Of a DNA stretch of 64,000 nt, positions 6,131 to 36,422 are shown one piece after another; positions within the stretch are counted from its first letter, which is position 1, and every line of letters starts with the position of its first letter. Source of the DNA: Promethearchaeota archaeon. GTDB taxonomy: Archaea; Asgardarchaeota; Lokiarchaeia; Sigyniarchaeales; SOKP01. The stretch lies in the NCBI GenBank assembly GCA_016840165.1, contig JAEOSU010000018.1, forward strand, positions 28,902 through 92,901, written 5' to 3'. The notes under the pieces were generated by a model that did not search any database, was not told the DNA's origin, and was given only the letters and a program-made list of their open reading frames with translations. Made by a program: the position numbers and the translations under genes.

Positions 6131-7543
6131 TTAGATATAAGTTTTAATTAACTCTCTTAAATTTTTTGTGAGATTTGGTAGTGACTTTTCAATTTTTTCT
6201 ACTCTTAATGCTTTTTCCATGAATAATAATAAATATAGATTATAATTATCTACATTTATTTTTTGAAATACAATTTTTTTAGATTGTTCCGAAATACCGG
6301 AAGTAACAATAAAATCTTTCTTTAATATCTTAAACTCTTTAAATGTCTTATATAAAGTCGTAAAGTGTGGTGCTGAGATTTCAAAAACCTTGTTAGCAAT
6401 ATCAGATTTTGAATAATTCGATAAGATGATACCATTTTCATTTAAGAGAAGAATCGCATCAGAATTAACCTTGTCAGAAAACAAACGTAATTGGTTCCGG
6501 AATAATTCACGATTAGGGCTTAGTCGTGAAAGTCCAAATGAATAAGCGGAAATAAGGCTCCAATGATCAAAAATCGATGTTTGAAAGATTTTTATGAAAA
6601 AGGTATGAGAACTTTTGCCTATCTCATTGGTTATATATTCAATATTTTTTTTGATCTCTCTTGATTTCTTTAGATCTGGATCAAACTTATTGATACATAC
6701 TACTATAGGCGGAAACTCATCTAAATTTTTAAGGGAATTGAGAATGTTCTGAAATAATGAAACCGATTCTTTAATTCTTTCAGTATCTTGGACGTCAATA
6801 AAATAAAACAATAAATCCACATTATACAAATAGACTTTTCCTTGTTCAAGAAACTTTTCTCGATATTTTTTTTGCCCCCCTAAATCCCATATAGATATTT
6901 GGGAGTTTTGTTCCTCAAATAATTTCTCCTCTGTTCTTGAAACTCCCTTTGTGGGTAAAGTTTTTATAATTTCAGAGTATCTCTTCTTTACCGCAAGTAA
7001 GAAACTTGTCTTTCCAGCTCTATCCAAGCCTGTAAATAAAATTTTTAATTGTCTTTTTATCGAAAAAGGATCTTTCAGTTCATTGGTAAACTCAAGTAAA
7101 TCTTTTTTAAGTTGATTCATAATAGCTTTATTCTCCTCTAATGTATTTCGAGCTAATATTTTTGTAGCAGTATTATCGATGATGACCCGCAAATATTTCA
7201 TGTTTTCATAAAAAAATATTTTATTTGTCTCTTCAATTAAAATGGTGATAGTTGCTGCTTTTGCGTTTCCTCTAGCTGCTTTATCAGGGATAAGAAAAAA
7301 ATATGTTAATCCATTTAATTTTAAATCGGGAAAAGGTAAGATTCCGAAATAATTAATTCCTTCTATAGTTGTACCGTTTTGATAAACAGAATCGCCCATA
7401 AGTAGACTTATAGTTTTCATAGCGACTAATAATCGCGCTGACTCATCTAAGTCTTCTGGCCAATAGATTATAGGAGTAGGTCCGTCATCATCAAAAAGGC
7501 TATATACAATTGACTTAATTATCTCTCTTTTCATTTCCGTCAT
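6131..7543 (-). CDS. Longin/uDENN (FLCN/SMCR8-like) - Rag/Arf-like small GTPase - roadblock-like fusion protein
   Basis: G1 GLDRAGKTS, G2 PTKG, G3 DLGGQ, G4 NKFD, G5 TSIFD. N-terminal SLFDDDGPTP and PDKAARG. C-terminal DAILLLNENGIILS roadblock strand-turn. Confidence 0.85.
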   Translation of the reverse strand: MTEMKREIIKSIVYSLFDDDGPTPIIYWPEDLDESARLLVAMKTISLLMGDSVYQNGTTIEGINYFGILPFPDLKLNGLTYFFLIPDKAARGNAKAATITILIEETNKIFFYENMKYLRVIIDNTATKILARNTLEENKAIMNQLKKDLLEFTNELKDPFSIKRQLKILFTGLDRAGKTSFLLAVKKRYSEIIKTLPTKGVSRTEEKLFEEQNSQISIWDLGGQKKYREKFLEQGKVYLYNVDLLFYFIDVQDTERIKESVSLFQNILNSLKNLDEFPPIVVCINKFDPDLKKSREIKKNIEYITNEIGKSSHTFFIKIFQTSIFDHWSLISAYSFGLSRLSPNRELFRNQLRLFSDKVNSDAILLLNENGIILSNYSKSDIANKVFEISAPHFTTLYKTFKEFKILKKDFIVTSGISEQSKKIVFQKINVDNYNLYLLLFMEKALRVEKIEKSLPNLTKNLRELIKTYI

Positions 7544-7684
7544 TATATAATACTTTTTAACACAGTATCTTAAAATAGATTTTAATCGAGGTAATAATCC
7601 GAAATATCGATTTTTGTAGATATTAAAATACGATATTTTAATATATCAATAAACTAAGTGTTAATAAATTTAATGAGAAAGAAA

Positions 7685-9478
7685 TTATTTTATAAAATTA
7701 AGACTTTTTATTTCAGTTTTAATCCAAATCTGCCTTAAAAATTCTAATATAGCTTGCTTGGTAGTATAGTTTTGCTTGAATTCTTCTAAACTCACTTTTT
7801 CAGTTGCTCCATGTGAAATTAATGAGTGAAATTTCCCTTGGTTTTCAAGTTTTTTAAATAAATCCATTTCGATATCCTTATCAAATTTTGTAGAATTAGA
7901 ATAAGAATCCATTGAAATATGTGGAAAATGACGTTTATCCAATTTAATAAATCGATCTATTGCCCTTTGTGAGGTATCTTCTATGAGAGCAAACTTTCTC
8001 TTATAAATTTTTGAAAATTCATTACAGCTATTAGCCATTTCAGTAACAATGTGCATACCGAGATCAAGTGAGTTAGAAGTCTCATGCATCATGTTATTGG
8101 TCAATATTTTAACCGCCTCATTTAAACCGATAAAACCAATACATAAATCTTGATTTTTTAATTGATAAAGATTAGTTCCCTCAATTAAACTATTACATAA
8201 CGGTAAATGGTTGGTCGAAAGGCGCTTTTTGATGATTTCATATTTTTTGTTCAAGATAGTAGCACATAAGTGCAATTTTTGATTTAAATCCTCCATAAAT
8301 AGCGTTTCATCTCTGTTATTAAATGCAATTCTAGGTAGGTTTATCGAGATCTTCTGAAGAATTCCATGGTTTAAATAACCGTCTAATGTTTTATTCTCTA
8401 TAGTATCATTTAGTTTAAATAATGAAGAATTTAACAGATAGGGGGCTTGATTAGTATTAATCTCATTGATAACTTTTATAAAAGAATCTTGGTATTTACT
8501 TAACCATTCACTACTACAAAATATTTTATGGACCGGGTATCGAAAAGGATGAGAATAAAAGTCACCCTCTGTAAAGATATCAATGAAACAATCAAAAAGT
8601 TTTAAGCATTCAGAGGAAAAGTCTGAGTATATTCCGTCAACTTTTCCATGAATCCCAATAGCAGTCTCATCTAAGAAGGGTTCAACTATAGTAGGATAAC
8701 ATTCTAATGATGATTTAAGATATCGCTTACCAGAGATGGCTGATAAATGATTTATTTCATATATAAAGCTTTTAAGTTCATTTCTAATCTCTGAATCGGA
8801 TAAGTTACCAACTAAGGGTGCTAAAAAAATAGTTAAATGATTAAAGCTTTGGCATCCACAAAATTCATTTTGAATTATACCTGTCCAATTTGCGAGCTGA
8901 TTCAAGGCTTCTCTTAAATTCTGAGGCGGTTTTACTTTATAAGAGAAGCTCTTAAGATCAGTGGGCGGAATTCCGTATTTCAATATGATCCTTGGATCCC
9001 AGGTATGCTCATACGGTCTTAAATCAAAATACTTAAGCTGATGAATGTAGATATCTCCAAATAAATGGGCTTTTGATTCCTCATCAGTTAAAATTCGTAA
9101 TAATGTATATTCTTCTGCCAATTGGTTAGCTGCCCAGTGATGAATCTTCTCGGGATTAATTACACTTCTAATTACATCTTTTTCTACTTTTTCCAAGATC
9201 TCCTCATAATCCATCAGTGGCATTCCTATGCGGGTATAGAGTTTCCTTTCTTTTTCATAATGATTTTCAGATAAAATAGAACAAACGATCTCTCTTATAT
9301 GGGGTCCAGAAAGGAACTTTATTCCAGAACTTATTATTCTTCTAACTACTAATTCTGTGACGTTTTTAGCCTCTTCTTCTGGCATCCCTGTTTCTTTCAT
9401 GATGCTCTCAAAAATTTTAGAGGCATCAAAATCAACGACATCTCCCTCGGATCGAAAAACTTTAGGTAATAAGTGCAT
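7685..9478 (-). CDS. ATP-cone plus anaerobic ribonucleotide reductase (NrdD)-like protein, apparently catalytically degenerate
   Basis: ATP cone (VFRSEGDVVDFDASKI...GPHIREIVC), HLFGDIYIHQL, SINLPRIA, IGFIGLNEAV and YSNS. No C-terminal CxxC site or RxxGY. ATG at 9478 (MHLLPKV) preferred over the track start at 9556. Confidence 0.8.
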   Translation of the reverse strand: MHLLPKVFRSEGDVVDFDASKIFESIMKETGMPEEEAKNVTELVVRRIISSGIKFLSGPHIREIVCSILSENHYEKERKLYTRIGMPLMDYEEILEKVEKDVIRSVINPEKIHHWAANQLAEEYTLLRILTDEESKAHLFGDIYIHQLKYFDLRPYEHTWDPRIILKYGIPPTDLKSFSYKVKPPQNLREALNQLANWTGIIQNEFCGCQSFNHLTIFLAPLVGNLSDSEIRNELKSFIYEINHLSAISGKRYLKSSLECYPTIVEPFLDETAIGIHGKVDGIYSDFSSECLKLFDCFIDIFTEGDFYSHPFRYPVHKIFCSSEWLSKYQDSFIKVINEINTNQAPYLLNSSLFKLNDTIENKTLDGYLNHGILQKISINLPRIAFNNRDETLFMEDLNQKLHLCATILNKKYEIIKKRLSTNHLPLCNSLIEGTNLYQLKNQDLCIGFIGLNEAVKILTNNMMHETSNSLDLGMHIVTEMANSCNEFSKIYKRKFALIEDTSQRAIDRFIKLDKRHFPHISMDSYSNSTKFDKDIEMDLFKKLENQGKFHSLISHGATEKVSLEEFKQNYTTKQAILEFLRQIWIKTEIKSLNFIK

Positions 9479-9681
9479 TTTGTCGGAACCTTTTTTATAT
9501 ACTCTGTTTTTAGATATTATCTCTAATATTATTATTATAGAGATTTTAAAAAACAATTTATTAACACATTAAAGAGATGTGTATTTATAAAGAAATATTA
9601 GAAAAATTTTGCTAAAATAAGATTTAGATTGTTATTACCTTGGTAACAAAAATGAAATGGAAAATAAAATTTTAGTAATTT

Positions 9682-10458
9682 TTAATTAGTTTTTGAACCA
9701 CATAACGGACAATATCTTCCTTCCTTGTTGATTAACCTCGTTCCACAGTTGGGACAGAAATTACTAATTTCAATCATGTTTATAGAAGTTTGAACGCTTT
9801 CTTGAGGAACTGCTTGAGCATTCACAACTAATTGCTGATTTGAAGATACTTGATAATACATTATTGAATCTAACTTCGCTAATTTAAAGTAACCTGCGAT
9901 TTGAAAGATAAAACCGATGAAAACAGTAATTATTAAAAAGCCTAGAGCATATAATAAAGCACCTGTCTTAAGATTTTCACATCCATTAATAGCATCTTGA
10001 CCTATATTAATAGGAAATAGCTCTCTATTATTTTGGAAATAAATCTTTAAATTTTCCCAAGCTTTCATTTCAATTACTGAGCTTGAAATAAGCAATATTA
10101 GCCCTGCTACCAGTATGCATATGCTGATGGGAAATAGGATAGCATTGAACGGTGGTATATATAATGGGATAAAGAAATTTATTGCCAAGCTGACACCTCC
10201 TACAACGAGAAAAATAAATCCGATTATAATCAAAATCATAGATCGTACGTACTTAGAACGAAACATTCCAAGATTAGGATTATTCAATTGGTAATTAATA
10301 TTTCTAATAACCCCTAATGCTAAAAAAATAAAAACCAATGCCACTATACTCGCAACTGGAGCTATAGGGGGAATAAAAGATAACACACTCGCTATCGCAA
10401 TTACCCGAATCTTCTTTCCAAATTCATAGAAACTATTTCTGATAGTATCATTATCCAA
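9682..10458 (-). CDS. Membrane protein (DUF973-like) with C-terminal zinc ribbon
   Basis: Several hydrophobic helices; C-terminal FCPNCG...YCPLCG. Confidence 0.65.
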   Translation of the reverse strand: MDNDTIRNSFYEFGKKIRVIAIASVLSFIPPIAPVASIVALVFIFLALGVIRNINYQLNNPNLGMFRSKYVRSMILIIIGFIFLVVGGVSLAINFFIPLYIPPFNAILFPISICILVAGLILLISSSVIEMKAWENLKIYFQNNRELFPINIGQDAINGCENLKTGALLYALGFLIITVFIGFIFQIAGYFKLAKLDSIMYYQVSSNQQLVVNAQAVPQESVQTSINMIEISNFCPNCGTRLINKEGRYCPLCGSKTN

Positions 10459-11430: not shown

Positions 11431-12384
11431 CTATTTATCTAATCCTAAGTATTCTTTCACTTGTTTTTTAACAATATTTGCAGCAAAATTAATAATTCCT
11501 GATTTAATCCGAGGCGATGAGAATATTACCAATATCATGTCATTGCCCAATGTGGTTTCAGTATCAATAGGAGCAAGATCTACAACTCCGTTAGATCCAC
11601 GTACGGAAATATTAAGTAACTTTCCCGCACTTAAACCCTCAATTATATCTTCTCCTATCATCGAAAGATTTTGTCCAATCGTTGCAAATAAATTGTCTGA
11701 CATTCGTGAGGAGATAGCGGAGGCAAGAATCGTTCCATCCTTCTTAATGATGGCTGAAGCTTCAATATGTAAATCTAATTTTAATAATTCTTTAAGAATT
11801 TCATTCATACTTGAAGGGGGAATAAACTCTTCTTTTTTCTTTTTCTCATATGGTTCTTTTTCTGTTGGGAGTTTTTTTACTGTTATCTTTTTTGATAAGA
11901 AGGTCAATACTTTAGTCATATCCTCCTCTAACTGTTTTTGCTTTACCAAAGATGCTTCGGAATAGGGTGCTTTAGGTACGGGTTGTGGCTTCTCCGTTGA
12001 AGATTTGGAACTATATACTCCTTTTAACCCAATAATTGATCCCTCAAACGGTTTGGGAGTAATCTCCGTAAGGATCTCCTTTTCATCTTCAATATCATCA
12101 TTTTCCTCCTTATGCACTACTAGCTTTTTGGCGTCATCCTTTGAATTATTAACATGGATTTCAACTAATGGTATTTCTTGAAGTTCAGATACTTTGGGCT
12201 TCTTCACGACTTTTGGCTTATTAATAGGTATTTTTTCCCTTGATTTACTCTCTTTTTTCTTTTTTTCTAAAGTAAGTCTTATTCGCGGTGGTTTTGTAGA
12301 AATTGGGAGCAATGCGCCACACTTACGGCATATGTTTCCATCTGCTTCGTTATTGGTCGCACCACAATTACTACATATTATCAT
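11431..12384 (-). CDS. Zinc-ribbon / disordered linker / roadblock-LC7 domain protein
   Basis: N-terminal CSNCG...CRKCG; K/E/P-rich middle; C-terminal IEASAIIKKDGTILASA...GKL.NISVRGSNG roadblock pattern. Confidence 0.75.
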   Translation of the reverse strand: MIICSNCGATNNEADGNICRKCGALLPISTKPPRIRLTLEKKKKESKSREKIPINKPKVVKKPKVSELQEIPLVEIHVNNSKDDAKKLVVHKEENDDIEDEKEILTEITPKPFEGSIIGLKGVYSSKSSTEKPQPVPKAPYSEASLVKQKQLEEDMTKVLTFLSKKITVKKLPTEKEPYEKKKKEEFIPPSSMNEILKELLKLDLHIEASAIIKKDGTILASAISSRMSDNLFATIGQNLSMIGEDIIEGLSAGKLLNISVRGSNGVVDLAPIDTETTLGNDMILVIFSSPRIKSGIINFAANIVKKQVKEYLGLDK

Positions 12385-12664
12385 AAGTGAAGCCCTTAAT
12401 AATAGCTAATTTGAGTAAAAATCGAAAATATAGTCTATATCTACTTTATACTAGTGATAATACTGTTTTATTAATATTGTTTCTTTATTATAAAAATCAA
12501 TTTAAAGTTCTAAATTATATCTTTTTCTCTGATATCTTTTCAATAGGAGTTAGTTCTGATTAGAAGATTGAATAAATTCCGAAATAAGAACCTCTAATTA
12601 TATAAAATTTACTTTTTAACAGAAGGAATTAAGTAAAAGAGAAATAAAAACATGTTGCTTTCAA

Positions 12665-13645
12665 TTATTTAAACAAAATTTCGGTCATTATATTAGCGAA
12701 TGAATCAAAGTCCTCTTTATTAATTGCCGGATCCCCTTTTAACATAAGTATATAATATGGTGTTTTGACATCTCGGATATTTAATTTCTTAAATATAAAG
12801 TTTCTCCCAAATCTTTGTACAATCATCTTACCTTCTTCTTCAATTCTTCCCGGTATGACTTGTGTAAATTGGAAACTGTCATTTAAGGTTAGAAAGTAGG
12901 GAGTGGATGCAGATAAAAGATTTTTAGTTTCCTCATCCTTGTAAAAATATCCAATGATGAGAGAGTTATCATCAATAACCACCACTCCCTCAGAATCTAC
13001 TTTTTTGGCAAATTCATCTATAGTTTTACTAATTAATTCCGCTTTGGGATATAAATTTAATAAAATTTCTGACATTGCGCTAATTATAGAATTTAGATCA
13101 TAAATCGATGTATTATAGTAATAAATGCGCTTATAATCTACAGAACGTCTCAGTTTTTCTTTAAGATCTATTTCTAAACTTTTAAATTCGTTCATTGCAT
13201 TTCGTCTTAATGCTGGGTCATATTTGTGGAAAAAGACATATATAGGAGGTTCAATTTCAAGTTTTCTAAATTGTTCAACCACATCTTTGAAGTAACTCAT
13301 AGCTTCTGGAATTCGTGGTTTGTTTTGAATGTCAATCACATAGATTGCGATCTCTGTTCCATCGAAATACTTCCCTGGGTTCTTAAGATAACTAATTCTA
13401 TAACTGATTTGTCCTCCCAAATCCCATTCGGCTATTTCCCTGCCTAAAAACTCAAAAATACGTCTTTGGGCTCCTCTAGTAGGTTTTAAAAGAGCTATTT
13501 TAGAGAATTCTCTTTGAAGGGCTAAAATTATTGAAGTCTTCCCTGCAGCATCTAAACCTGTAAACAATATTTTCGATTGAGGCTCAGGTGGCTCTTTTTT
13601 TTCTTTTGAAAGGTATTGAATTTCCAAAATAAATTCACCTTGCAA
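12665..13645 (-). CDS. Rag/Gtr-like small GTPase with C-terminal roadblock-like domain
   Basis: GLDAAGKTS, PTRG, DLGGQ, G4 HKYD and G5 TSIYD (Rag-type HKxD/TSIxD); C-terminal EGVVVIDDNSLIIG. The true start may be TTG at 13627, which follows an AGGTGA. Confidence 0.85.
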   Translation of the reverse strand: MQGEFILEIQYLSKEKKEPPEPQSKILFTGLDAAGKTSIILALQREFSKIALLKPTRGAQRRIFEFLGREIAEWDLGGQISYRISYLKNPGKYFDGTEIAIYVIDIQNKPRIPEAMSYFKDVVEQFRKLEIEPPIYVFFHKYDPALRRNAMNEFKSLEIDLKEKLRRSVDYKRIYYYNTSIYDLNSIISAMSEILLNLYPKAELISKTIDEFAKKVDSEGVVVIDDNSLIIGYFYKDEETKNLLSASTPYFLTLNDSFQFTQVIPGRIEEEGKMIVQRFGRNFIFKKLNIRDVKTPYYILMLKGDPAINKEDFDSFANIMTEILFK

Positions 13646-26944: not shown

Positions 26945-27988
26945 ATGATAAACCAAGATATTATTACCGCTGTGTTGTATATCCAATTAGATGATGAAGT
27001 AGGTCCTAATCCCGTTGTAACTCTTCCTAAGGATTTTGCTAATGTAAATAAGATGCATGTCAGTATTAAAGTGATTACGGTACTTTCGGGAGAACATGGT
27101 AATGTTCCAAAAAAATTGGTCATTCTACCGTTTCCTTCTCTAAAATTAAAAGGAATTATTAAATATATTAAGTGGGACGATCCTAAACGAAGAGGAGGCA
27201 TTGGTCAGGCAGCAATAGCCATTTTATTTGAGGATATAAACGATGTTATCTTTTACAAATATTTTGAACAATTGAGCGACTCTTTCGAGGAAATAGGAAA
27301 AATCTTTAGAAATTTGGAAGAAAATAGATCTAAATTGGAAGAAATCGAAAAAGAAGTTAAGAATTTAATTAATAGAATCAAAACAGTACTTAATGAGCTA
27401 CGGATTGATGAAACATCTCAATCTGAATCAAAAGAATTTCCAAAACTTAAACTTAAAGATTCAACAATGATAGATTATAAATTCAAAATCATTGTGTTAG
27501 GAGATCCGGGAGTGGGAAAAACCTCGCTTATATTAAGATACACTGATAACGCTTTTCGAAGAAGTTATATTCCTACCTTAGGGGTGCACGTTAGTGATAA
27601 GATCTTTAAAATAGATGATGCCGTTGTTCAACTTGTAATCTGGGATTTAGCAGGACAACAAAAATTCGATACAATGCGTCATCAATTCTATGTTGGTTCT
27701 GATGGTTTTATTTTGGTATTTGATTTGACTAATCTCAATTCTTTTGAGAATTTATCTAACTGGTTTCTAGATATACAAAATCAATTCAAGGATCAAACTA
27801 ACTTAATGGGTTATGTTATCGGAAATAAATGTGATTTAAGAGAGCAAGTTAAAATTAAATCGGAAAATGCAAAAGAATTAGCCTCTTATCTAAACCTTAA
27901 CTTTATTGAAACATCAGCTTTATCTGGTTTAAATGTTAATAAAGTTTTTACACAATTAGCAAAATCTTTATATACTTCATTTACTTAA
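26945..27988 (+). CDS. Longin/uDENN - Rab-like small GTPase fusion
   Basis: N-terminal LDDEVGPNP and DDPKRRGG; GTPase motifs GDPGVGKTS, YIPTLG, WDLAGQ, GNKCD and ETSA. Confidence 0.9.
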   Translation: MINQDIITAVLYIQLDDEVGPNPVVTLPKDFANVNKMHVSIKVITVLSGEHGNVPKKLVILPFPSLKLKGIIKYIKWDDPKRRGGIGQAAIAILFEDINDVIFYKYFEQLSDSFEEIGKIFRNLEENRSKLEEIEKEVKNLINRIKTVLNELRIDETSQSESKEFPKLKLKDSTMIDYKFKIIVLGDPGVGKTSLILRYTDNAFRRSYIPTLGVHVSDKIFKIDDAVVQLVIWDLAGQQKFDTMRHQFYVGSDGFILVFDLTNLNSFENLSNWFLDIQNQFKDQTNLMGYVIGNKCDLREQVKIKSENAKELASYLNLNFIETSALSGLNVNKVFTQLAKSLYTSFT

Positions 27989-28336: not shown

Positions 28337-29389
28337 TTGGATAGAGCGATCATTCATTCCATAGTATACACTGAATTTAATGATGAATTAGGTCCAAATC
28401 CACTTTTTTGTCTTCCACAAGATTTGTCAGAGAACATTTCAATGCTTGTAAGCATTAAAACGGTTACGATCCTCTCAGCTGATCATGGTTTTATACCAGA
28501 TTCGCTTATAATTATTCCTTTTCCCTCGTTGAAATTAAAAGGTTTAATTAAATATATAGAAAGAGACGACGAATCAAGACGGGGAAAAGTTGCTCAATCT
28601 GCAATCACATTTTTATTTCGAGAAGTTGAAGATATCCTCTTTTATAAATATATGAACTATTTCAATTCTCCTTTTAATGAGACCACCCGTAAAATAGTTG
28701 AATTAGAAAATCAAAATCAGGATAAATCGCTGATATTTAGAGAAATTGAGAATTTAAAAGATAGTATTCACGCATTATTAAAAGATTTTAGGATTAAAGA
28801 ATTTCAGCAATTCTCTTATAAAGAATTTCCTGAAATAAAAAAATTAACTGAAAAAGAAGTTGATTTAAAGGCGAAAATAGTAATTATTGGAGATCCAGGA
28901 GTCGGAAAAACAAGTACTATTTTACGTTTTACTGATAATGCATTTAAAAGAAGCTATATCCCCACTATGGGCACAAACATAACTGAAAAGAGTTTTAGAG
29001 TTAAGGATAATATAATAGAGTTGATTCTATGGGATTTAGCAGGACAAAGTAAGTTCGAACTTATGCGAAAACATTTTTATCAAGGCGCTGAAGCTGTTAT
29101 ACTTATTTTTGATTTAACAAATCCTAAATCCTTTCAAAGTGTAATTCAGTGGTTTGAAGATATCGAGAATAACTTAATACTTGAGCATGAGCTTATTGGA
29201 TGTCTCTTTGGAAACAAAACTGATTTAACTAATGGACGTAAAATTGGTACTAATGAAGCACAAAAATTAGCCTCCCAGTTAAATCTAGATTACTTTGAAA
29301 CTTCGGCTCTAACAGGAAAAAATGTAGAAAATGCATTTTATAAGATCGCAGAGAAAATTATTGAAGTAAGAAAGCCAGATTTAGCATAA
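28337..29389 (+). CDS. Longin/uDENN - Rab-like small GTPase fusion (tandem paralogue)
   Basis: TEFNDELGPNP and DDESRRGK; GTPase motifs GDPGVGKTS, YIPTMG, WDLAGQ, GNKTD and ETSA. TTG start after GAGG. Confidence 0.9.
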   Translation: MDRAIIHSIVYTEFNDELGPNPLFCLPQDLSENISMLVSIKTVTILSADHGFIPDSLIIIPFPSLKLKGLIKYIERDDESRRGKVAQSAITFLFREVEDILFYKYMNYFNSPFNETTRKIVELENQNQDKSLIFREIENLKDSIHALLKDFRIKEFQQFSYKEFPEIKKLTEKEVDLKAKIVIIGDPGVGKTSTILRFTDNAFKRSYIPTMGTNITEKSFRVKDNIIELILWDLAGQSKFELMRKHFYQGAEAVILIFDLTNPKSFQSVIQWFEDIENNLILEHELIGCLFGNKTDLTNGRKIGTNEAQKLASQLNLDYFETSALTGKNVENAFYKIAEKIIEVRKPDLA

Positions 29390-29539
29390 ATTAATTCTTC
29401 CAACTAAGATTTATAATTAAGTTATAAAAATCTAAATTTTATAGTCTTATTCAAAATAGTTTAATTGGATAGTAATAAAAATAAACATTGCTAAATATTA
29501 TTTAAATTAGATTTTTATATTCTTGGGTGGAATCTAAGC

Positions 29540-30757
29540 ATGGTAAATTTTACCTTTGATGATTGGATCATAGGTGTTTCTACATTAGTAATTTTATTAT
29601 TTGGTTATGGATTAGGGTCCTACTTTTTTTACAAGTCAATAAAGATGAAGACTATGCTCCTTAGCATGCTAAGTTTGTCGATGATAAGTGTGAGTTTTGC
29701 ATGGCTACCCATTGTTTTAGATTTCTTTTTAGTGCTTTTTACTAATACAAGTGGAGAACTTTTAGTTTATATATATTTAACTTGGGGTCAACTCCCTTTT
29801 AGCGTTTTTTTAAGTCAATATGTGGCTGCGGAACTCCTTTTACCATCAAAAAAGATATATATCATTTATTTCTTAGAAATAATCGGAATACTTTTCTTAG
29901 TATTTCTATTTTTAGATCCGGTCAATTCTGTTATCCCTGTAGGATATCCTGCGGAAAACTTTTATTATAAGATTAGTATTAAAAATAATTCATTTCTAGG
30001 GATTTTTGGTCTTATATTAATCCTTTTTGTCTTTATCTTTTCTGGTATAGGTTATATTTATAAATCTTCCATTTCTAAGCCTCAAATTAAAAATAATTTT
30101 AGATTTTTAGGAATAGGAATGATATTTATTTATTTATTTGGTTTTCTAGACAGTATTCTTAATGGGATCTTTCTTGTTTTAGTAAGAATAGGGGCGATTG
30201 TCGGGCTCTTTTTATCCTACTGGGGGCTTAAACCAAGAATTCAAAAAAAACATCATGATTATGATAATCGTGTGAAGGTGATTACTTATTTTCTCCATAA
30301 GCCAAAATCCGCGGATATTTCAGGAGAGATCGAATATTATCGTGATTTATTAAAACGGCCAATAGTTTTATTCATAAGTTTTTATCTTGGAGATTTAAAA
30401 ATATTTAAGATAAGAGAGGTTATCCAAAAATTAAAAGTTTATCCTGAAATCAAAGATATTATTTATCGGACTTATGAAACCAATGAAAACATGTTTGAGT
30501 TTACACAAAATGTTATTGATAAATTTGACATAATGCTAGTATTTTGTTCAAAAGAAGCATTAAGTTCAATAGAGGTCAAAAATCAATGGATAAGTGCTCT
30601 TGAAAACAAGAAATCAATCATCCCTGTGTTTATAAAATCAGATTACGTGCCAGATCTATTGAAGAATAATGAAGGATTATTATATGATTTATATGACTTT
30701 GACAAAACAGTCTTAAATTTACGGCATTTAATATTAAAAGCAATTTTCAGTAAATAA
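29540..30757 (+). CDS. 7TM membrane protein with C-terminal TIR-like domain
   Basis: Seven hydrophobic segments in aa ~8-230, then LFISF...FDIMLVFCSKEALSS.EVKNQW..A....IIPVF...VP.LL, a TIR-type pattern. Confidence 0.7.
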   Translation: MVNFTFDDWIIGVSTLVILLFGYGLGSYFFYKSIKMKTMLLSMLSLSMISVSFAWLPIVLDFFLVLFTNTSGELLVYIYLTWGQLPFSVFLSQYVAAELLLPSKKIYIIYFLEIIGILFLVFLFLDPVNSVIPVGYPAENFYYKISIKNNSFLGIFGLILILFVFIFSGIGYIYKSSISKPQIKNNFRFLGIGMIFIYLFGFLDSILNGIFLVLVRIGAIVGLFLSYWGLKPRIQKKHHDYDNRVKVITYFLHKPKSADISGEIEYYRDLLKRPIVLFISFYLGDLKIFKIREVIQKLKVYPEIKDIIYRTYETNENMFEFTQNVIDKFDIMLVFCSKEALSSIEVKNQWISALENKKSIIPVFIKSDYVPDLLKNNEGLLYDLYDFDKTVLNLRHLILKAIFSK

Positions 30758-34358: not shown

Positions 34359-36422
34359 CTAGAATGGTCCAGTAAGAGAGGCATAAACACAAGGATGATC
34401 GGCAGCATTTCCGCCGGTATAAAGCACCCGTGAGACTGTGGTGTTTAGATCTCCCGATACAAATATGTGATCAATTCGAGCGTGTGGTAATCGTGGAACC
34501 CAACTATCTGGAACATCTCCTATCAATTGTAAAGAAGGTGGTACTAATTCCCAGCAATCATATAGTTCAGCAACCGTTATATTATATTGTTCTGTATTTG
34601 GTCGAAAATTAAAATCTCCCATCAATATAACATTCTGTAATCCCGGTATAAGGGATAGGATATTTTCTTGTTGTACTATTTGGGATCTATCCTCAGCAGG
34701 ATCCTCATAATTTCCAAGATGTGTAACAAAAATATTAAATTCAGTAGTTCCTACTATGATTTTTACCCAGATAGTCGCGGTTTGTTCTCCTTTACTTTCC
34801 ATATAAAATGTTCTTGGATTAAGTATAGGATATTTTGATAAAAGGGCAATCCCATAAGTGCCAGTCACGGTTTTCGGCCCATAATATGAATAAAGCTTCA
34901 ACTGATTATCGATAAATCTTACGATATCAGTATTACCACTTGAAATCCTACACGTGTCTGATTCTTGTAATGCGATAATATCTCCATCTAAATTCTTTAT
35001 AACTTCATACTGACCTTCAAAATTTTTGTTTCCACTATCATCTGAGCCTTGCTGGATGTTATAGGATACAATTGATAAGGATGCATTTGAAACAGGTCGT
35101 TGATAAGGAAATTCAAAAATTATCGTCGGAACAATGGAAGCAATTATTAAAATAATAATAATTACCATCGTTTGCTTTTTATTACTAAGTATTGAGACTG
35201 TTTTTTCCCTAATAACTTGAACATTTTTAGCGACCAATATAAATGGGAGAAAGAAAGAAAGTCCTAGTATGAGATATACTAACCAAATCATGTCGCGAAA
35301 TATATCTCCCACTAAAGGTATATAATCCCAGACGATTGTAAATACAGCAGATAAAACCATAATTAGAAAGAAACCGCTAGCTATAAAGTAGCTTCCCCCT
35401 AACTTTCTCGTACTCGGTTTGCTTCTAAATAGTTCTTGAGATAACATGATAAAGTCTATGAATATTATTGGACTTAGGATCAGCATTATGATTAAAAACA
35501 GAATACTTAGTATATTGGATTCAACAAAATAGGGATATATATCAATAAAAGCAAAGAAAACGGTGTTACTCAAAAGCACGATAACTAAACTTGCTATAAA
35601 TATTACATTCCATAATAATAACATCCATTTATTTAGTCGTTTTAGGATTTCGGGGCGATATAGTTGTAAGAATAGAAATAGAGCATTTGGACATAAAAAT
35701 AATATAAGGATCAATAAATAGTCTACTTCTGTCCATCTTGCTAAAACAGTAGGACTTGTAAAAGCAAAATATAATAGTGTGATTATCCCCATCATTGCAA
35801 TGCTCAAGCTTAAAATTTTCCATTTACTACCTGGTTGTATTTTTAGGTTATCTTTAGTATCTAATGGAGGTTCTTCTTGGACCCTTTTATTGATGAGTGG
35901 AATCATAATGGCTAAATAAATTGCAAAAATCCATCCAATCCACATGAACCAACTATATGTTGATAAATCAATCGAACTTCCAAGTACTCTTAAAGTAACC
36001 GATAGAAATACCGAAATTGCTAATCCAATGCCCAAATGTAACCCTTTTTTTTCAAAGTGTCCTTTCCCCAATTTATGAAGAAAGACCGGAAAAAATACCA
36101 TGAAACATCCTAATCCTATCCCAGTTATTATCATCTTTAGTTGTACCGGCATTAATGGCTGTAAAATCCTGCACAATACCATTATTTCTCCAATTATAAT
36201 AAATCCTATATTCGGAAAACCTCTTTTAAAGAAAAGGAGAATAATTGGAGTTAAAAGGAAGAATAAAGCTAAGACATTTTCGTTTAATTCTACTTCAATT
36301 AGATTTAAGGCATAGATAGATTCCACGAAGTCGTTTATGAGTTGAAAGAAGAATAGAAACAAGATACTGATTACTACTAATTCAGAATAAATTTTTGTAC
36401 TATATTTTTTGTAGATTTCCAT
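34359..36422 (-). CDS. Polytopic membrane protein with C-terminal endonuclease/exonuclease/phosphatase domain (CWH43/PGAP2IP-like)
   Basis: About 13 TM helices followed by SYNIQQG, ALQESD, GIALLSKYP, THLG, MGDFN, RIDHIF and DHP. Confidence 0.8.
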   Translation of the reverse strand: MEIYKKYSTKIYSELVVISILFLFFFQLINDFVESIYALNLIEVELNENVLALFFLLTPIILLFFKRGFPNIGFIIIGEIMVLCRILQPLMPVQLKMIITGIGLGCFMVFFPVFLHKLGKGHFEKKGLHLGIGLAISVFLSVTLRVLGSSIDLSTYSWFMWIGWIFAIYLAIMIPLINKRVQEEPPLDTKDNLKIQPGSKWKILSLSIAMMGIITLLYFAFTSPTVLARWTEVDYLLILILFLCPNALFLFLQLYRPEILKRLNKWMLLLWNVIFIASLVIVLLSNTVFFAFIDIYPYFVESNILSILFLIIMLILSPIIFIDFIMLSQELFRSKPSTRKLGGSYFIASGFFLIMVLSAVFTIVWDYIPLVGDIFRDMIWLVYLILGLSFFLPFILVAKNVQVIREKTVSILSNKKQTMVIIIILIIASIVPTIIFEFPYQRPVSNASLSIVSYNIQQGSDDSGNKNFEGQYEVIKNLDGDIIALQESDTCRISSGNTDIVRFIDNQLKLYSYYGPKTVTGTYGIALLSKYPILNPRTFYMESKGEQTATIWVKIIVGTTEFNIFVTHLGNYEDPAEDRSQIVQQENILSLIPGLQNVILMGDFNFRPNTEQYNITVAELYDCWELVPPSLQLIGDVPDSWVPRLPHARIDHIFVSGDLNTTVSRVLYTGGNAADHPCVYASLTGPF

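Follow-up and report, generated by a model that had tools for sequence, protein, structure and literature searches.

TIR domains occur in two forms, as NAD-consuming enzymes (bacteria, plants, SARM1) and as inert scaffolds (animal Toll/interleukin receptors). To our knowledge, the transition from enzyme to scaffold has rarely been caught in the act. In a stretch of 64,000 nucleotides from a Promethearchaeota archaeon (hereafter, the window), a gene that follows two genes for small GTPases encodes a seven-helix membrane protein with a C-terminal TIR domain, in which Gln occupies the position of the usual catalytic Glu. This raises the question of what such a TIR domain still does, and of whether the membrane protein and the GTPases act together. 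A literature search found no paper on Asgard 7TM-TIR proteins or on their link to GTPases.

The gene (P0001) extends over positions 29540-30757 of the forward strand, stop codon included, as defined by the list of open reading frames, the translation and 12 homologues with 44-85% identity. It has an ATG start and encodes 405 amino acids, and the homologues begin at an identical MV(N/S)F. From the N-terminus, seven transmembrane helices are followed by a disordered linker and then by a domain of TIR fold. The order of seven hydrophobic helices and a TIR-like domain, already proposed in the preliminary description, is borne out by Kyte-Doolittle analysis (seven hydrophobic segments), by the AlphaFold2 (AF2) model (transmembrane helices at residues 6-36, 39-68, 74-100, 102-125, 152-178, 181-206 and 211-230) and by fold matches. 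The membrane domain (residues 1-230; 29540-30229, +), delimited by these three lines of evidence and by the family alignment, is modelled with a pLDDT of about 80-90 and displays a beta-hairpin (131-147) within an outer loop. Because the predicted inner loops contain 13 Lys or Arg residues versus 2 in the outer loops, an N-out/C-in topology fits the sequence. The cytoplasmic linker (residues 231-272; 30230-30355, +) is basic and poorly conserved. Its residues 234-257 have a pLDDT below 50 and, of the three regions of the protein, it shows the lowest identity and the highest dN/dS. The remainder (residues 273-405; 30356-30754, +) is the cytoplasmic TIR-fold domain, the active-site signature of which is degraded. 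With the entire protein, a search of NCBIfam gave zero matches and a whole-model Foldseek search gave only weak matches to GPCRs and TIR domains (E 1e-4 to 1e-2).

The C-terminal domain (about 273-405) is modelled as an alpha/beta domain (pLDDT 75-89) with the flavodoxin-like TIR fold, a sheet of five parallel strands between helices. Comparison with solved structures (VIA) yielded Cat1 (Z 13.4, rmsd 2.0 over 114 residues), RPS4 (Z 13.0), RPP1 and Hydra TRR-2 (Z 12.4 each) and MyD88 (Z 12.3) and, somewhat lower, ThsB (Z 12.0), SARM1 (Z 11.9) and MAL (Z 11.8); the matches in the Atlas were to TIR_2/ThsB clusters. Sequence profiles recognize the domain at the borderline. In Pfam, at E values up to 1, TIR_2 is the only family matched and no 7tm family appears; the TIR_2 score is 25.9 bits with the whole protein and 28.5 bits with residues 255-405, for a cut-off of 28, and the match covers only profile positions 35-101 of 122. 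Seven TIR paralogues encoded in the same genome can be aligned across the whole domain. Six of them, that is all but the 1133-residue one, were scanned against Pfam. Five score 45-58 bits with TIR_2, of which they cover profile positions 1-109 to 1-118, and for the sixth, a 1221-residue WD40 protein, TIR_2 is not among the 25 families listed. Sequence searches of the PDB with the domain and the family profile retrieved only a bacterial SEFIR protein (E 3.5e-7) and a TIR-TPR protein (E 1e-3) and, more weakly, Hydra TRR-2 (E 0.16) and C. elegans TIR-1 (E 3.4). The fold matches and the full-length alignment of the paralogues establish the TIR fold of the domain.

In enzymatic TIR domains, the catalytic Glu belongs to an S-x-x-V/C-x-x-E motif after strand C. 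In the present protein the motif reads SSIEVKNQW and is placed by the AF2 model in the helix after strand C, with Gln349, encoded by CAA (30584-30586, +), at the family-invariant, catalytic-type Glu position. This column contains Glu in 23/23 other TIR domains of the lineage examined, with the pattern ..V.KEW.AA; counted by set, it is Glu in 16/16 other lineage TIRs and in 17/17 other 7TM-TIR proteins, and Gln in all 10 members of the protein's own clade. We located the catalytic position from the sequence motif and the secondary structure rather than from a residue-level structural superposition. In the solved TIR-TPR protein 9m0n, SEWVKKEIT aligns with the S..VKKEW of the family, the Glu of which we take to correspond to SARM1 Glu642 in the S-x-W-V-x-K-E motif. 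Thus, the preliminary description was right in pointing to a Gln in place of the usual Glu. Beyond this residue, the Gln-bearing TIR has kept 20 of the 41 family-conserved columns and lost 21, including Y281F, T283, W310, D316, Y321F, N325 and C329F.

The ten Gln-bearing sequences are monophyletic (support 100/100) and nested among 17 Glu-bearing 7TM-TIRs, their sister group being Glu-bearing positional orthologues from the same genus. The Glu-to-Gln substitution has a single origin. The stem of the Gln clade is long (0.71 versus 0.23 for the Glu-bearing sister). Inside the clade, the dN/dS of the TIR domain is 0.10-0.15, like that of the transmembrane domain, which corresponds to purifying selection. 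Since the Glu is gone, only 20/41 conserved columns are kept and selection continues, the best reading is that this TIR has lost NADase-type chemistry and retained a non-catalytic role, the presumed loss being deduced from one residue together with the decay of the motif.

It has also to be considered whether the domain might still be an enzyme, either with its carboxylate shifted by one helical turn, to Glu345, or with a Gln that supports a changed substrate or product chemistry. Glu345, the Glu of SIEV, lies four residues before Gln349 and might share a helix face with it. The residue at this position is Glu in eight and Asp in one of the ten clade members, compared with Pro, Ala, Asn or Ser in the Glu-bearing relatives. 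An acidic residue at -4 is therefore a derived feature of the Gln clade, which, like the purifying selection on the domain, would agree with a persisting activity. However, in P0010 (identical to L002/L007), which branches first within the clade, position 349 is already Gln while -4 is Ser, so that the loss of the Glu preceded any replacement. Moreover, many further conserved polar residues disappeared at the same time, and in the TIR NADases studied, Glu-to-Gln and Glu-to-Ala substitutions abolish activity. We consider a persisting enzyme very improbable, and Glu345, which is Ser in the basal member and Asp in another, an unlikely catalytic substitute. As for the scaffold-type TIR put forward in the preliminary description, the lost Glu, the degradation of other conserved polar positions and the persisting selection all fit a non-enzymatic domain, although the loss of activity itself is deduced from sequence.

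The seven-helix domain defines a Promethearchaeota family of 664 representatives, in every one of which it is N-terminal. It is a sensor-type input module with exchangeable outputs, since some members consist of it alone and others join it to TIR, PHD/RING-like zinc finger or histidine kinase modules. Four members are fused to HisKA and HATPase_c, with or without PAS, and these match the family profile at E values of 1e-45 to 3e-64. Three of 53 members match Pfam HisKA_7TM (PF16927; best E 3.3e-6). The present protein has no PF16927 match at E values up to 1; an Atlas feature search with it also pointed to HisKA_7TM. One ESM Atlas cluster assembles 78 Promethearchaeota 7TM-TIR proteins, 92% of them with TIR_2. 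Across the family, G26, D61, L80, E98, K105 and R216 are conserved.

Could the domain be an anchor, a small transporter or an enzyme instead of a sensor, the C-terminal domains being merely held at the membrane? The bulk of the family members are about 235 residues long and lack any output domain, the model has no ligand-binding ectodomain and exposes only short loops and one beta-hairpin outward, and the fold matches include the alkaline ceramidase ACER3 and ion-pumping rhodopsins. Nevertheless, the members in which HisKA-HATPase_c follows, with or without PAS, show the classic layout of a domain for signal input, and some members match HisKA_7TM. In addition, the buried charges D61, E98 and R216 are invariant or nearly so whatever the output type, which makes such a role of the domain improbable. 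The analysis thus supports the view that the protein belongs to a sensor-type 7TM family, crosses the membrane several times and carries its TIR domain in the cytoplasm.

Both genes upstream encode a longin-like N-domain followed by a Ras-family GTPase: the first (P0002) at 26945-27988 (+; Pfam Ras 173.6 bits, alignment) and the second (P0003), directly upstream of the 7TM-TIR gene, at 28337-29389 (+; Pfam Ras 165.9 bits, AF2 model). Their description as GTPases is thus confirmed, as is the distance of 150 nucleotides that separates the upstream stop at 29389 from the 7TM-TIR gene. In the model of the second GTPase, an N-domain with the order beta-beta-alpha-beta-beta-beta-alpha-alpha leads through a long helix to the G domain; the longin label is based on this order of strands and helices and on a weak Atlas lead (NPR2, 19% of one cluster, score 0.88). 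Neither GTPase has a C-terminal, lipid-anchor Cys. The intervening spacer (29390-29539, +) is AT-rich (about 28% GC), so much so that TATA-like and oligo-T runs within it are uninformative.

The preliminary description had seen in this arrangement a possible coupling of receptor and GTPases. A longin-Ras-like GTPase block has a 7TM-family gene within 3 kb in 39 of 78 species loci, where chance would give about 1% (by arithmetic from 6 family genes in 3.6 Mb), all loci coming from related genomes of one archaeal class, with an adjacency that is largely inherited synteny. Such a gene is found upstream of the block in 27/71 and downstream in 14/61 evaluable loci. The PPDK-UPF0147-GTPase-GTPase block is collinear in close relatives, and positional orthologues with a Glu-bearing TIR, a Gln-bearing TIR or a zinc finger stand behind the same GTPase pair. 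One complete chromosome has the cluster broken in two, with a 7TM gene beside a GTPase gene in either part (L107, L028). This linkage concerns the 7TM family and longin-GTPase genes, but not TIR domains as such: only one genus has the TIR-bearing form beside GTPases, no GTPase gene lies within 6 kb of any further TIR or 7TM gene in this genome, and other 7TM-TIR paralogues lack a nearby GTPase gene as well. A Ras-GTPase-TIR fusion is encoded elsewhere in the same genome. What adjoins the second GTPase gene most constantly is a nitroreductase gene, not a 7TM gene. In sister species (L025, L026, L027) the nitroreductase gene occupies the position of the spacer, and in one of them flavin reductase and beta-propeller genes also intervene before the 7TM-TIR gene; the tight spacing of 150 nucleotides is special to the subclade that lost the nitroreductase gene. 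A complex prediction for the full 7TM-TIR protein and the second GTPase returned "no answer" (score 0.00), which is evidence neither way. The proposal of a coupling is thus supported only in part, by the gene linkage of the 7TM family with longin-GTPases, which survives the split of the cluster, and a receptor-to-G-protein module would be a conjecture.

The restriction of the TIR-bearing form to one genus and the genes that intervene in the sister species would also be compatible with another origin. The protein might belong to a TIR conflict repertoire of the antiviral or abortive-infection type, as a decoy, a regulator or an inactive remnant, with its adjacency to the GTPases being a meaningless inherited order. 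TIR fusions typical of conflict systems, to WD40 repeats, a STAND-type NTPase, SMC/AAA and PCI, are indeed encoded in this genome, and the SMC/AAA-TIR protein matches PADLOC mad3 (7.8e-32). However, at E values up to 0.001, PADLOC has no family for the 7TM-TIR protein or for the two GTPases next to it, and the 7TM family adjoins GTPase genes with other outputs as well, and also after the cluster split. The present locus and the paralogous 7TM-TIR loci hold metabolic or housekeeping genes, and the idea of a defence island was rejected on examination of three paralogous loci, where the neighbours encode aldehyde ferredoxin oxidoreductase, Fe-ADH, NAD kinase, a citrate transporter and HMG-CoA synthase. 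Finally, the stable position and the purifying selection, seen in at least ten sequences, are unlike those of defence genes with fast turnover. We regard a part in a conflict system as unlikely, though still deserving attention.

The explanation that we prefer, with about an even chance of being correct, is that of a membrane 7TM sensor with a non-enzymatic TIR domain, derived from a Glu-bearing ancestor, that shares a pathway with longin-Ras-like GTPases. The N-terminal 7TM domain comes from a family that serves as an input module for several outputs (none, PHD/RING-like zinc finger, TIR or histidine kinase). The TIR domain descends from a Glu-bearing, presumably NAD-cleaving TIR and lost, on one stem branch, its catalytic-type Glu (Glu to Gln) along with about half of the conserved residues, remaining under purifying selection afterwards. 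It would then most likely be non-enzymatic and act as a surface for binding or assembly. It may contact, TIR to TIR, the seven Glu-bearing TIR proteins of the genome, one of which is the Ras-GTPase-TIR fusion; alternatively, it may bind a nucleotide ligand. In either case the 7TM domain would control this activity and place it at the membrane. Since 7TM-family genes recur next to those of the longin-Ras-like GTPases, which lack lipid-anchor cysteines, the two kinds of protein may act in one membrane-associated pathway. The architecture, the fold, the substitution with its single origin, the continued selection and the neighbourhood counts are observations, from which the loss of NADase activity, a role as scaffold and a possible coupling with the GTPases are inferred.

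What emerges from the analysis is a family of 7TM sensors in Promethearchaeota that carry exchangeable outputs and whose genes recur beside those of longin-Ras-like GTPases. In sister species of one Asgard genus, Glu- and Gln-bearing TIR domains occur at one chromosomal position, attached to the same 7TM sensor. They form a natural matched pair for asking what a TIR domain still does after loss of the Glu. As far as we know, Asgard small GTPases have no lipid anchors and no known membrane partners; the 7TM proteins are therefore concrete candidates for such partners. One may go further, in what we consider a long shot, and imagine that private Promethearchaeota 7TM sensors dock lipid-free longin-Ras-like GTPases at the membrane and switch them, with the catalytically dead TIR as a TLR-like adaptor surface. 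If true, this would represent an archaeal pathway of receptor, adaptor and small GTPase with an origin independent of eukaryotic GPCR and TLR signalling.

Compared with known systems, the two upstream genes share their architecture (longin-like N-domain, Ras/Rab-like G domain, no C-terminal Cys) with the longin-GTPase fusions recorded as 'LG' architectures in Prometheoarchaeum MK-D1, where GTPase genes generally lie outside operons with regulators (Tran et al., 2024, PMC10933270). That article mentions no 7TM or TIR partners, the words 'TIR' and 'transmembrane' having 0 occurrences in it. The 7TM domain is similar to class C GPCRs (GABA-B, GPR156, CaSR) in helix count, topology and bundle arrangement (VIA Z 13.5-14.7, rmsd 3.7-4.1 over 212-231 residues), the best match being the GABA-B receptor 7TM domain (Z 14.7, rmsd 4.1 over 231 residues). 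A Z of 12-14 is also attained by ACER3, by designed bundles, one of them de novo, and by rhodopsins (about 13), and the best match lies only slightly above the Z of about 14 typical of the best match of mostly helical models, a level that helical bundles reach without kinship. The modelled fold thus appears to resemble GPCR and rhodopsin bundles at the level common to helical bundles. As with GPCRs, genes for GTP switches adjoin the 7TM-TIR gene, but these are Ras-like with a longin-like domain and not heterotrimeric G alpha, and the protein lacks a Pfam 7tm family match. A 2026 preprint describes Asgard structural clusters with GPCRs, which may or may not be the present 7TM family (10.64898/2026.10.28.762692).

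HisKA_7TM (PF16927) is likewise a seven-helix N-terminal input domain, with a kinase as output where the present protein has a TIR. With the TIR NADases and cyclases (SARM1, plant TNL TIRs, AbTir/ThsB/Cat1; TIR_2, PF13676), the protein has the fold in common (Z 12-13.4). However, whereas the paralogues of the lineage match TIR_2 over its full length (45-58 bits) and carry the Glu motif S..V.KEW, the 7TM-TIR protein has Gln, lacks about half of the conserved residues, scores at the borderline of TIR_2 and carries a fused seven-helix membrane domain. The scaffold TIRs of animal TLRs, MyD88 and MAL offer a parallel in kind, that of a receptor-type membrane protein with a cytoplasmic TIR devoid of the catalytic Glu, and the fold matches include MyD88 (Z 12.3), MAL (Z 11.8) and Hydra TRR-2 (Z 12.4). 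Yet the present protein crosses the membrane seven times, not once, lacks an LRR ectodomain and, on inspection, reads YRTYETNENMF after strand B in place of an RDxxPG-type box 2. It also has an origin of its own, being a recent derivative of an archaeal TIR with Glu.

The open reading frame encoding the 7TM-TIR protein (29540-30757, + strand; 405 aa) is borne out by 12 homologues (44-85% identity) sharing its start methionine. Its seven hydrophobic helices, deduced in the preliminary description, are recovered both as seven segments in hydropathy analysis and as seven TM helices in an AlphaFold2 model built from the 12-sequence alignment (mean pLDDT 78.9). The model also predicts a beta-hairpin (residues 131-147) in the loop joining helices 4 and 5, a basic, disordered linker (residues 234-257) and an alpha/beta domain beginning at about residue 273. 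By our own count, the predicted inner loops contain 13 Lys/Arg residues, versus two in the outer ones. Therefore, the N-terminus is predicted to lie outside and the C-terminal domain in the cytoplasm.

Pfam assigns this C-terminal domain to TIR_2 at a borderline level (the whole protein scores 25.9 bits and the domain on its own 28.5 bits, for a cut-off of 28 bits, with only profile positions 35-101 covered). The proposed TIR identity was settled by structural comparison, same-genome paralogues and an ESM Atlas cluster. In an exhaustive structural comparison, residues 272-405 match the solved TIR domains of Cat1 (Z 13.4, rmsd 2.0 over 114 residues), RPS4 (13.0), RPP1 (12.4), MyD88 (12.3), TIR-1 (12.1), ThsB (12.0) and SARM1 (11.9). 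The ESM Atlas cluster groups 78 proteins from Promethearchaeota, about 413 aa long and of the same overall shape, 92% of which have TIR_2. Moreover, structures retrieved with the family profile include those of a bacterial SEFIR protein (E 3.5e-7) and a TIR-TPR protein (E 1e-3), and the family thus falls within the wider TIR/SEFIR superfamily. Seven additional ORFs of the source genome contain a TIR domain (hmmsearch E 1e-23 to 1e-46). Among the six scanned with Pfam (the 1133-aa one was left out), five match TIR_2 from profile position 1 to 109-118 with 45-58 bits; for the sixth, a 1221-aa WD40 protein, TIR_2 is not among the 25 best families. Six Glu-bearing TIR genes of this repertoire are located at C8:56261-59923, C8:51725-53356, C15:31590-33353, C91:6287-9097, C72:18704-20308 and C66:20994-24392 (contigs of the source genome). 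Among their partner regions are about 19 WD40 repeats in the 1221-aa protein, a PCI-like region in the 588-aa one, a weak match to a STAND-type NTPase in that of 937 aa and SMC_N/AAA in that of 535 aa (PADLOC mad3, 7.8e-32). The gene for the 588-aa TIR protein, on contig C15, is followed at a distance of 2 kb downstream by a stand-alone gene of the 7TM family (35305-36018).

The replacement of the usual TIR glutamate by glutamine was confirmed. The codon at 30584-30586 is CAA, encoding Gln349 within SSIEVKNQW. At this position, all seven same-genome paralogues read ..S..V.(K/M/G)EW.(A/S)A, nine more TIRs from related genomes have the same Glu motif, and 17 more 7TM-TIR proteins carry Glu, reading KEWTAA. 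In the solved TIR-TPR protein, SEWVKKEIT aligns with the family motif. We take S-x-W-V-x-K-E, in the helix following strand C, to be the site of SARM1 Glu642 and of the catalytic Glu in the TIR NADases of plants and bacteria. In the AlphaFold2 model, Q349 belongs to helix 344-355, after strand 331-336. The predicted correspondence of Q349 with the catalytic position rests on motif and secondary structure rather than on residue-level superposition. Across 16 Glu-bearing TIRs, 41 columns are at least 85% conserved, of which 20 are retained by the Gln clade, the ten 7TM-TIR sequences sharing this Gln. Most retained columns belong to the hydrophobic core or to turns (F278, S280, D285, F335, C336, S337, S343, W350, A353, I360, I361, P362 and P371), and those lost include Y281F, A282Y, T283, W310, D316, Y321F, M322T, N325, C329F, E349Q and L378E. 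From the alignment, E349Q is not isolated, other family-conserved columns being changed as well.

When 29 7TM-TIR proteins are placed in a maximum-likelihood tree, the ten Gln sequences form one clade (100/100) with a stem of 0.71 changes per column. Its sister group is made of four proteins with Glu (stem 0.23), and other Glu-bearing 7TM-TIRs surround the two groups. Hence, the Glu was lost once, and a burst of other changes came with this loss. Inside the Gln clade, dN/dS is 0.10-0.15 for the TIR domain and 0.11-0.17 for the TM domain, with dS near saturation. The TIR is conserved no better than the TM part in this clade; in a Glu-bearing sister pair, TIR identity is 90% versus 72% for the TM part. 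At the sequence level, such a pattern is that of a domain whose function has changed, as opposed to a pseudogene in decay. Alternatively, E345, the Glu of SIEV, may have taken over as catalytic residue. Position -4 is indeed acidic in nine of the ten Gln-clade members, but the earliest-branching one has Ser there and yet already carries Gln349, and we consider such a takeover very improbable. The core reading, that of a non-catalytic TIR carried by a sensor, stands in our estimation at about an even chance.

The seven-helix domain has no Pfam or NCBIfam match of its own. In structural comparison, the membrane domains of class C GPCRs come first, with GABA-B at Z 14.7 (231 residues aligned, rmsd 4.1) and GPR156 at Z 13.9. 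Z values of 12-14 are also obtained with Frizzled, ACER3, class A and adhesion GPCRs, microbial rhodopsins and even designed GPCR-like bundles. Since helical bundles can attain such scores without kinship, "receptor-shaped" is a fair description, and "GPCR homologue" goes beyond the evidence. A profile from 20 diverse members retrieved 664 cluster representatives among 1.84 billion, with the domain N-terminal in all. Lengths fall into classes of about 235 aa (domain alone), 345-375 aa, 405-420 aa and 484-618 aa; G26, L80, K105 and R216 are invariant across all classes, and near-invariance extends to D61 in helix 2 and E98 at the inner end of helix 3. Pfam analysis of 53 longer members found TIR_2 in ten, a RING-type zinc finger in four, HisKA_7TM in three (best E 3.3e-6) and HisKA plus HATPase_c in four. 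The latter (P0032, P0033, P0093 and P0111, metagenomic representatives, one with PAS) are seven-helix sensor histidine kinases. Because the domain feeds histidine kinases and swaps outputs, it would by ordinary logic be a signal-input module. Tails of the 345-375-aa class display a PHD/RING-CH-like cross-brace, C-x2-C-x12-C-x2-C-x4-(C/H)-x2-C-x11-C-x2-C. Such a finger replaces the TIR in positional counterparts from sister genera (L032:4868-5902; L033:10560-11609 and 11765-12838; L027:9355-10398), where Pfam zf-C3HC4_3 scores 21.5 bits, below cut-off. These are seven-helix membrane proteins with a putative ubiquitin-ligase-type finger.

The 7TM-TIR gene starts, as previously described, 150 nt past the end of the second of two GTPase genes (26945-27988 and 28337-29389, both + strand). 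Both products are GTPases of the Ras family in which the G motifs are intact and a C-terminal Cys is missing, and their N-domain has the predicted longin-like order beta-beta-alpha-beta-beta-beta-alpha-alpha. Longin-GTPase fusions have been described in Asgard archaea (PMC10933270). In close relatives, PPDK, UPF0147, the two GTPases and 7TM-TIR form a collinear block, followed on the opposite strand by Fpg and a PALP enzyme. Such collinearity alone says little about a 7TM-GTPase link, and farther comparisons are informative. In those same-genus species that have the Glu-bearing orthologue, it stays behind the GTPase pair, with a nitroreductase gene immediately before it; the gene separating the two GTPase genes codes for an MFS transporter in one species and for a beta-lactamase-family protein in the other, and in one species flavin reductase and beta-propeller genes also separate the second GTPase from the nitroreductase. 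In another genus, the closest TM domain (E ~1e-70) is encoded by the gene at the same position, which has a zinc finger in place of the TIR, and a second, stand-alone 7TM gene lies immediately upstream of the first GTPase. Elsewhere in the window, 34359-36422 (-) encodes a 687-aa multi-TM protein; its orthologue on a related contig has Pfam Exo_endo_phos_PGAP2IP and Exo_endo_phos, which agrees with a CWH43/PGAP2IP-like reading.

Synteny was surveyed in different species, at 78 loci retrieved with a GTPase profile. A 7TM-family gene is found on the same strand within 3 kb of the GTPase block at 39 of them (27 of 71 evaluable upstream sides, 14 of 61 downstream); chance proximity would be about 1% by our arithmetic (six family genes in 3.6 Mb), but the loci are related, so that this comparison is not a probability. 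GT-NTR (21 loci) and 7TM-GT-GT-NTR (14 loci) are the commonest orders. On the complete chromosome CP070831.1, a 7TM-GTPase-GTPase-nitroreductase-7TM cluster is split into halves about 130 kb apart (L107 at ~2.81 Mb, L028 at ~2.67 Mb), either of which retains one GTPase gene beside a 7TM-family gene. The expected synteny is partly supported for the 7TM family, but not for the TIR in particular: within 6 kb of the five other 7TM genes and the seven other TIR genes of the source genome there is no GTPase, despite 66 small-GTPase ORFs. The steadier neighbour of the second GTPase gene is not the 7TM gene but a nitroreductase-family gene of about 190 aa (L025:8611-9183; L026:9267-9836; L027:10526-11116; most of L044-L119), directly after the second GTPase gene in most loci and 65-68% identical between genera; it is absent from the corresponding 150-nt gap of the window (29390-29539). 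Paralogous 7TM-TIR genes elsewhere sit among metabolic genes. At locus L031, a paralogous 7TM-TIR gene with Glu (8840-10081, -) and an NAD kinase gene (6772-7878, +) are about 1 kb apart, with one 200-aa ORF between them; this single case may be due to chance. Outside the window, the source genome encodes a 443-aa Ras-GTPase-TIR fusion (C8:11352-12680, equivalent to L035:3353-4681, + strand), with an N-terminal Ras domain (114.5 bits) and a C-terminal Glu-bearing TIR_2 (48.7 bits), a further hint of a TIR-GTPase connection.

It can be proposed that the 7TM input domain controls a cytoplasmic TIR that would no longer cleave NAD+ and would instead offer a binding or assembly surface; likely partners would be the catalytic TIR proteins of the lineage or a nucleotide ligand. 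The protein would probably share a membrane-proximal pathway with the longin-Ras-like GTPases. Functional coupling with them is nevertheless a tentative, somewhat doubtful proposal, and a true cascade of receptor, adaptor and GTPase is unlikely. No description of 7TM-TIR proteins or of their GTPase neighbourhood was found in the searchable literature; a 2026 preprint mentions, without detail, Asgard structural clusters with GPCRs (10.64898/2026.10.28.762692). By fold and kinship, the protein belongs to the TIR_2 superfamily, without the defining catalytic feature of the enzymatic subgroup. Its 7TM domain appears related to that of histidine-kinase 7TM sensors, whereas kinship with GPCRs is not demonstrable. 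In working mode, it would be likest to an animal TLR-type receptor, combining a membrane sensor with an inert TIR. It is, however, not a member of the TLR family: it carries seven helices, lacks an LRR ectodomain and box 2, and arose independently.
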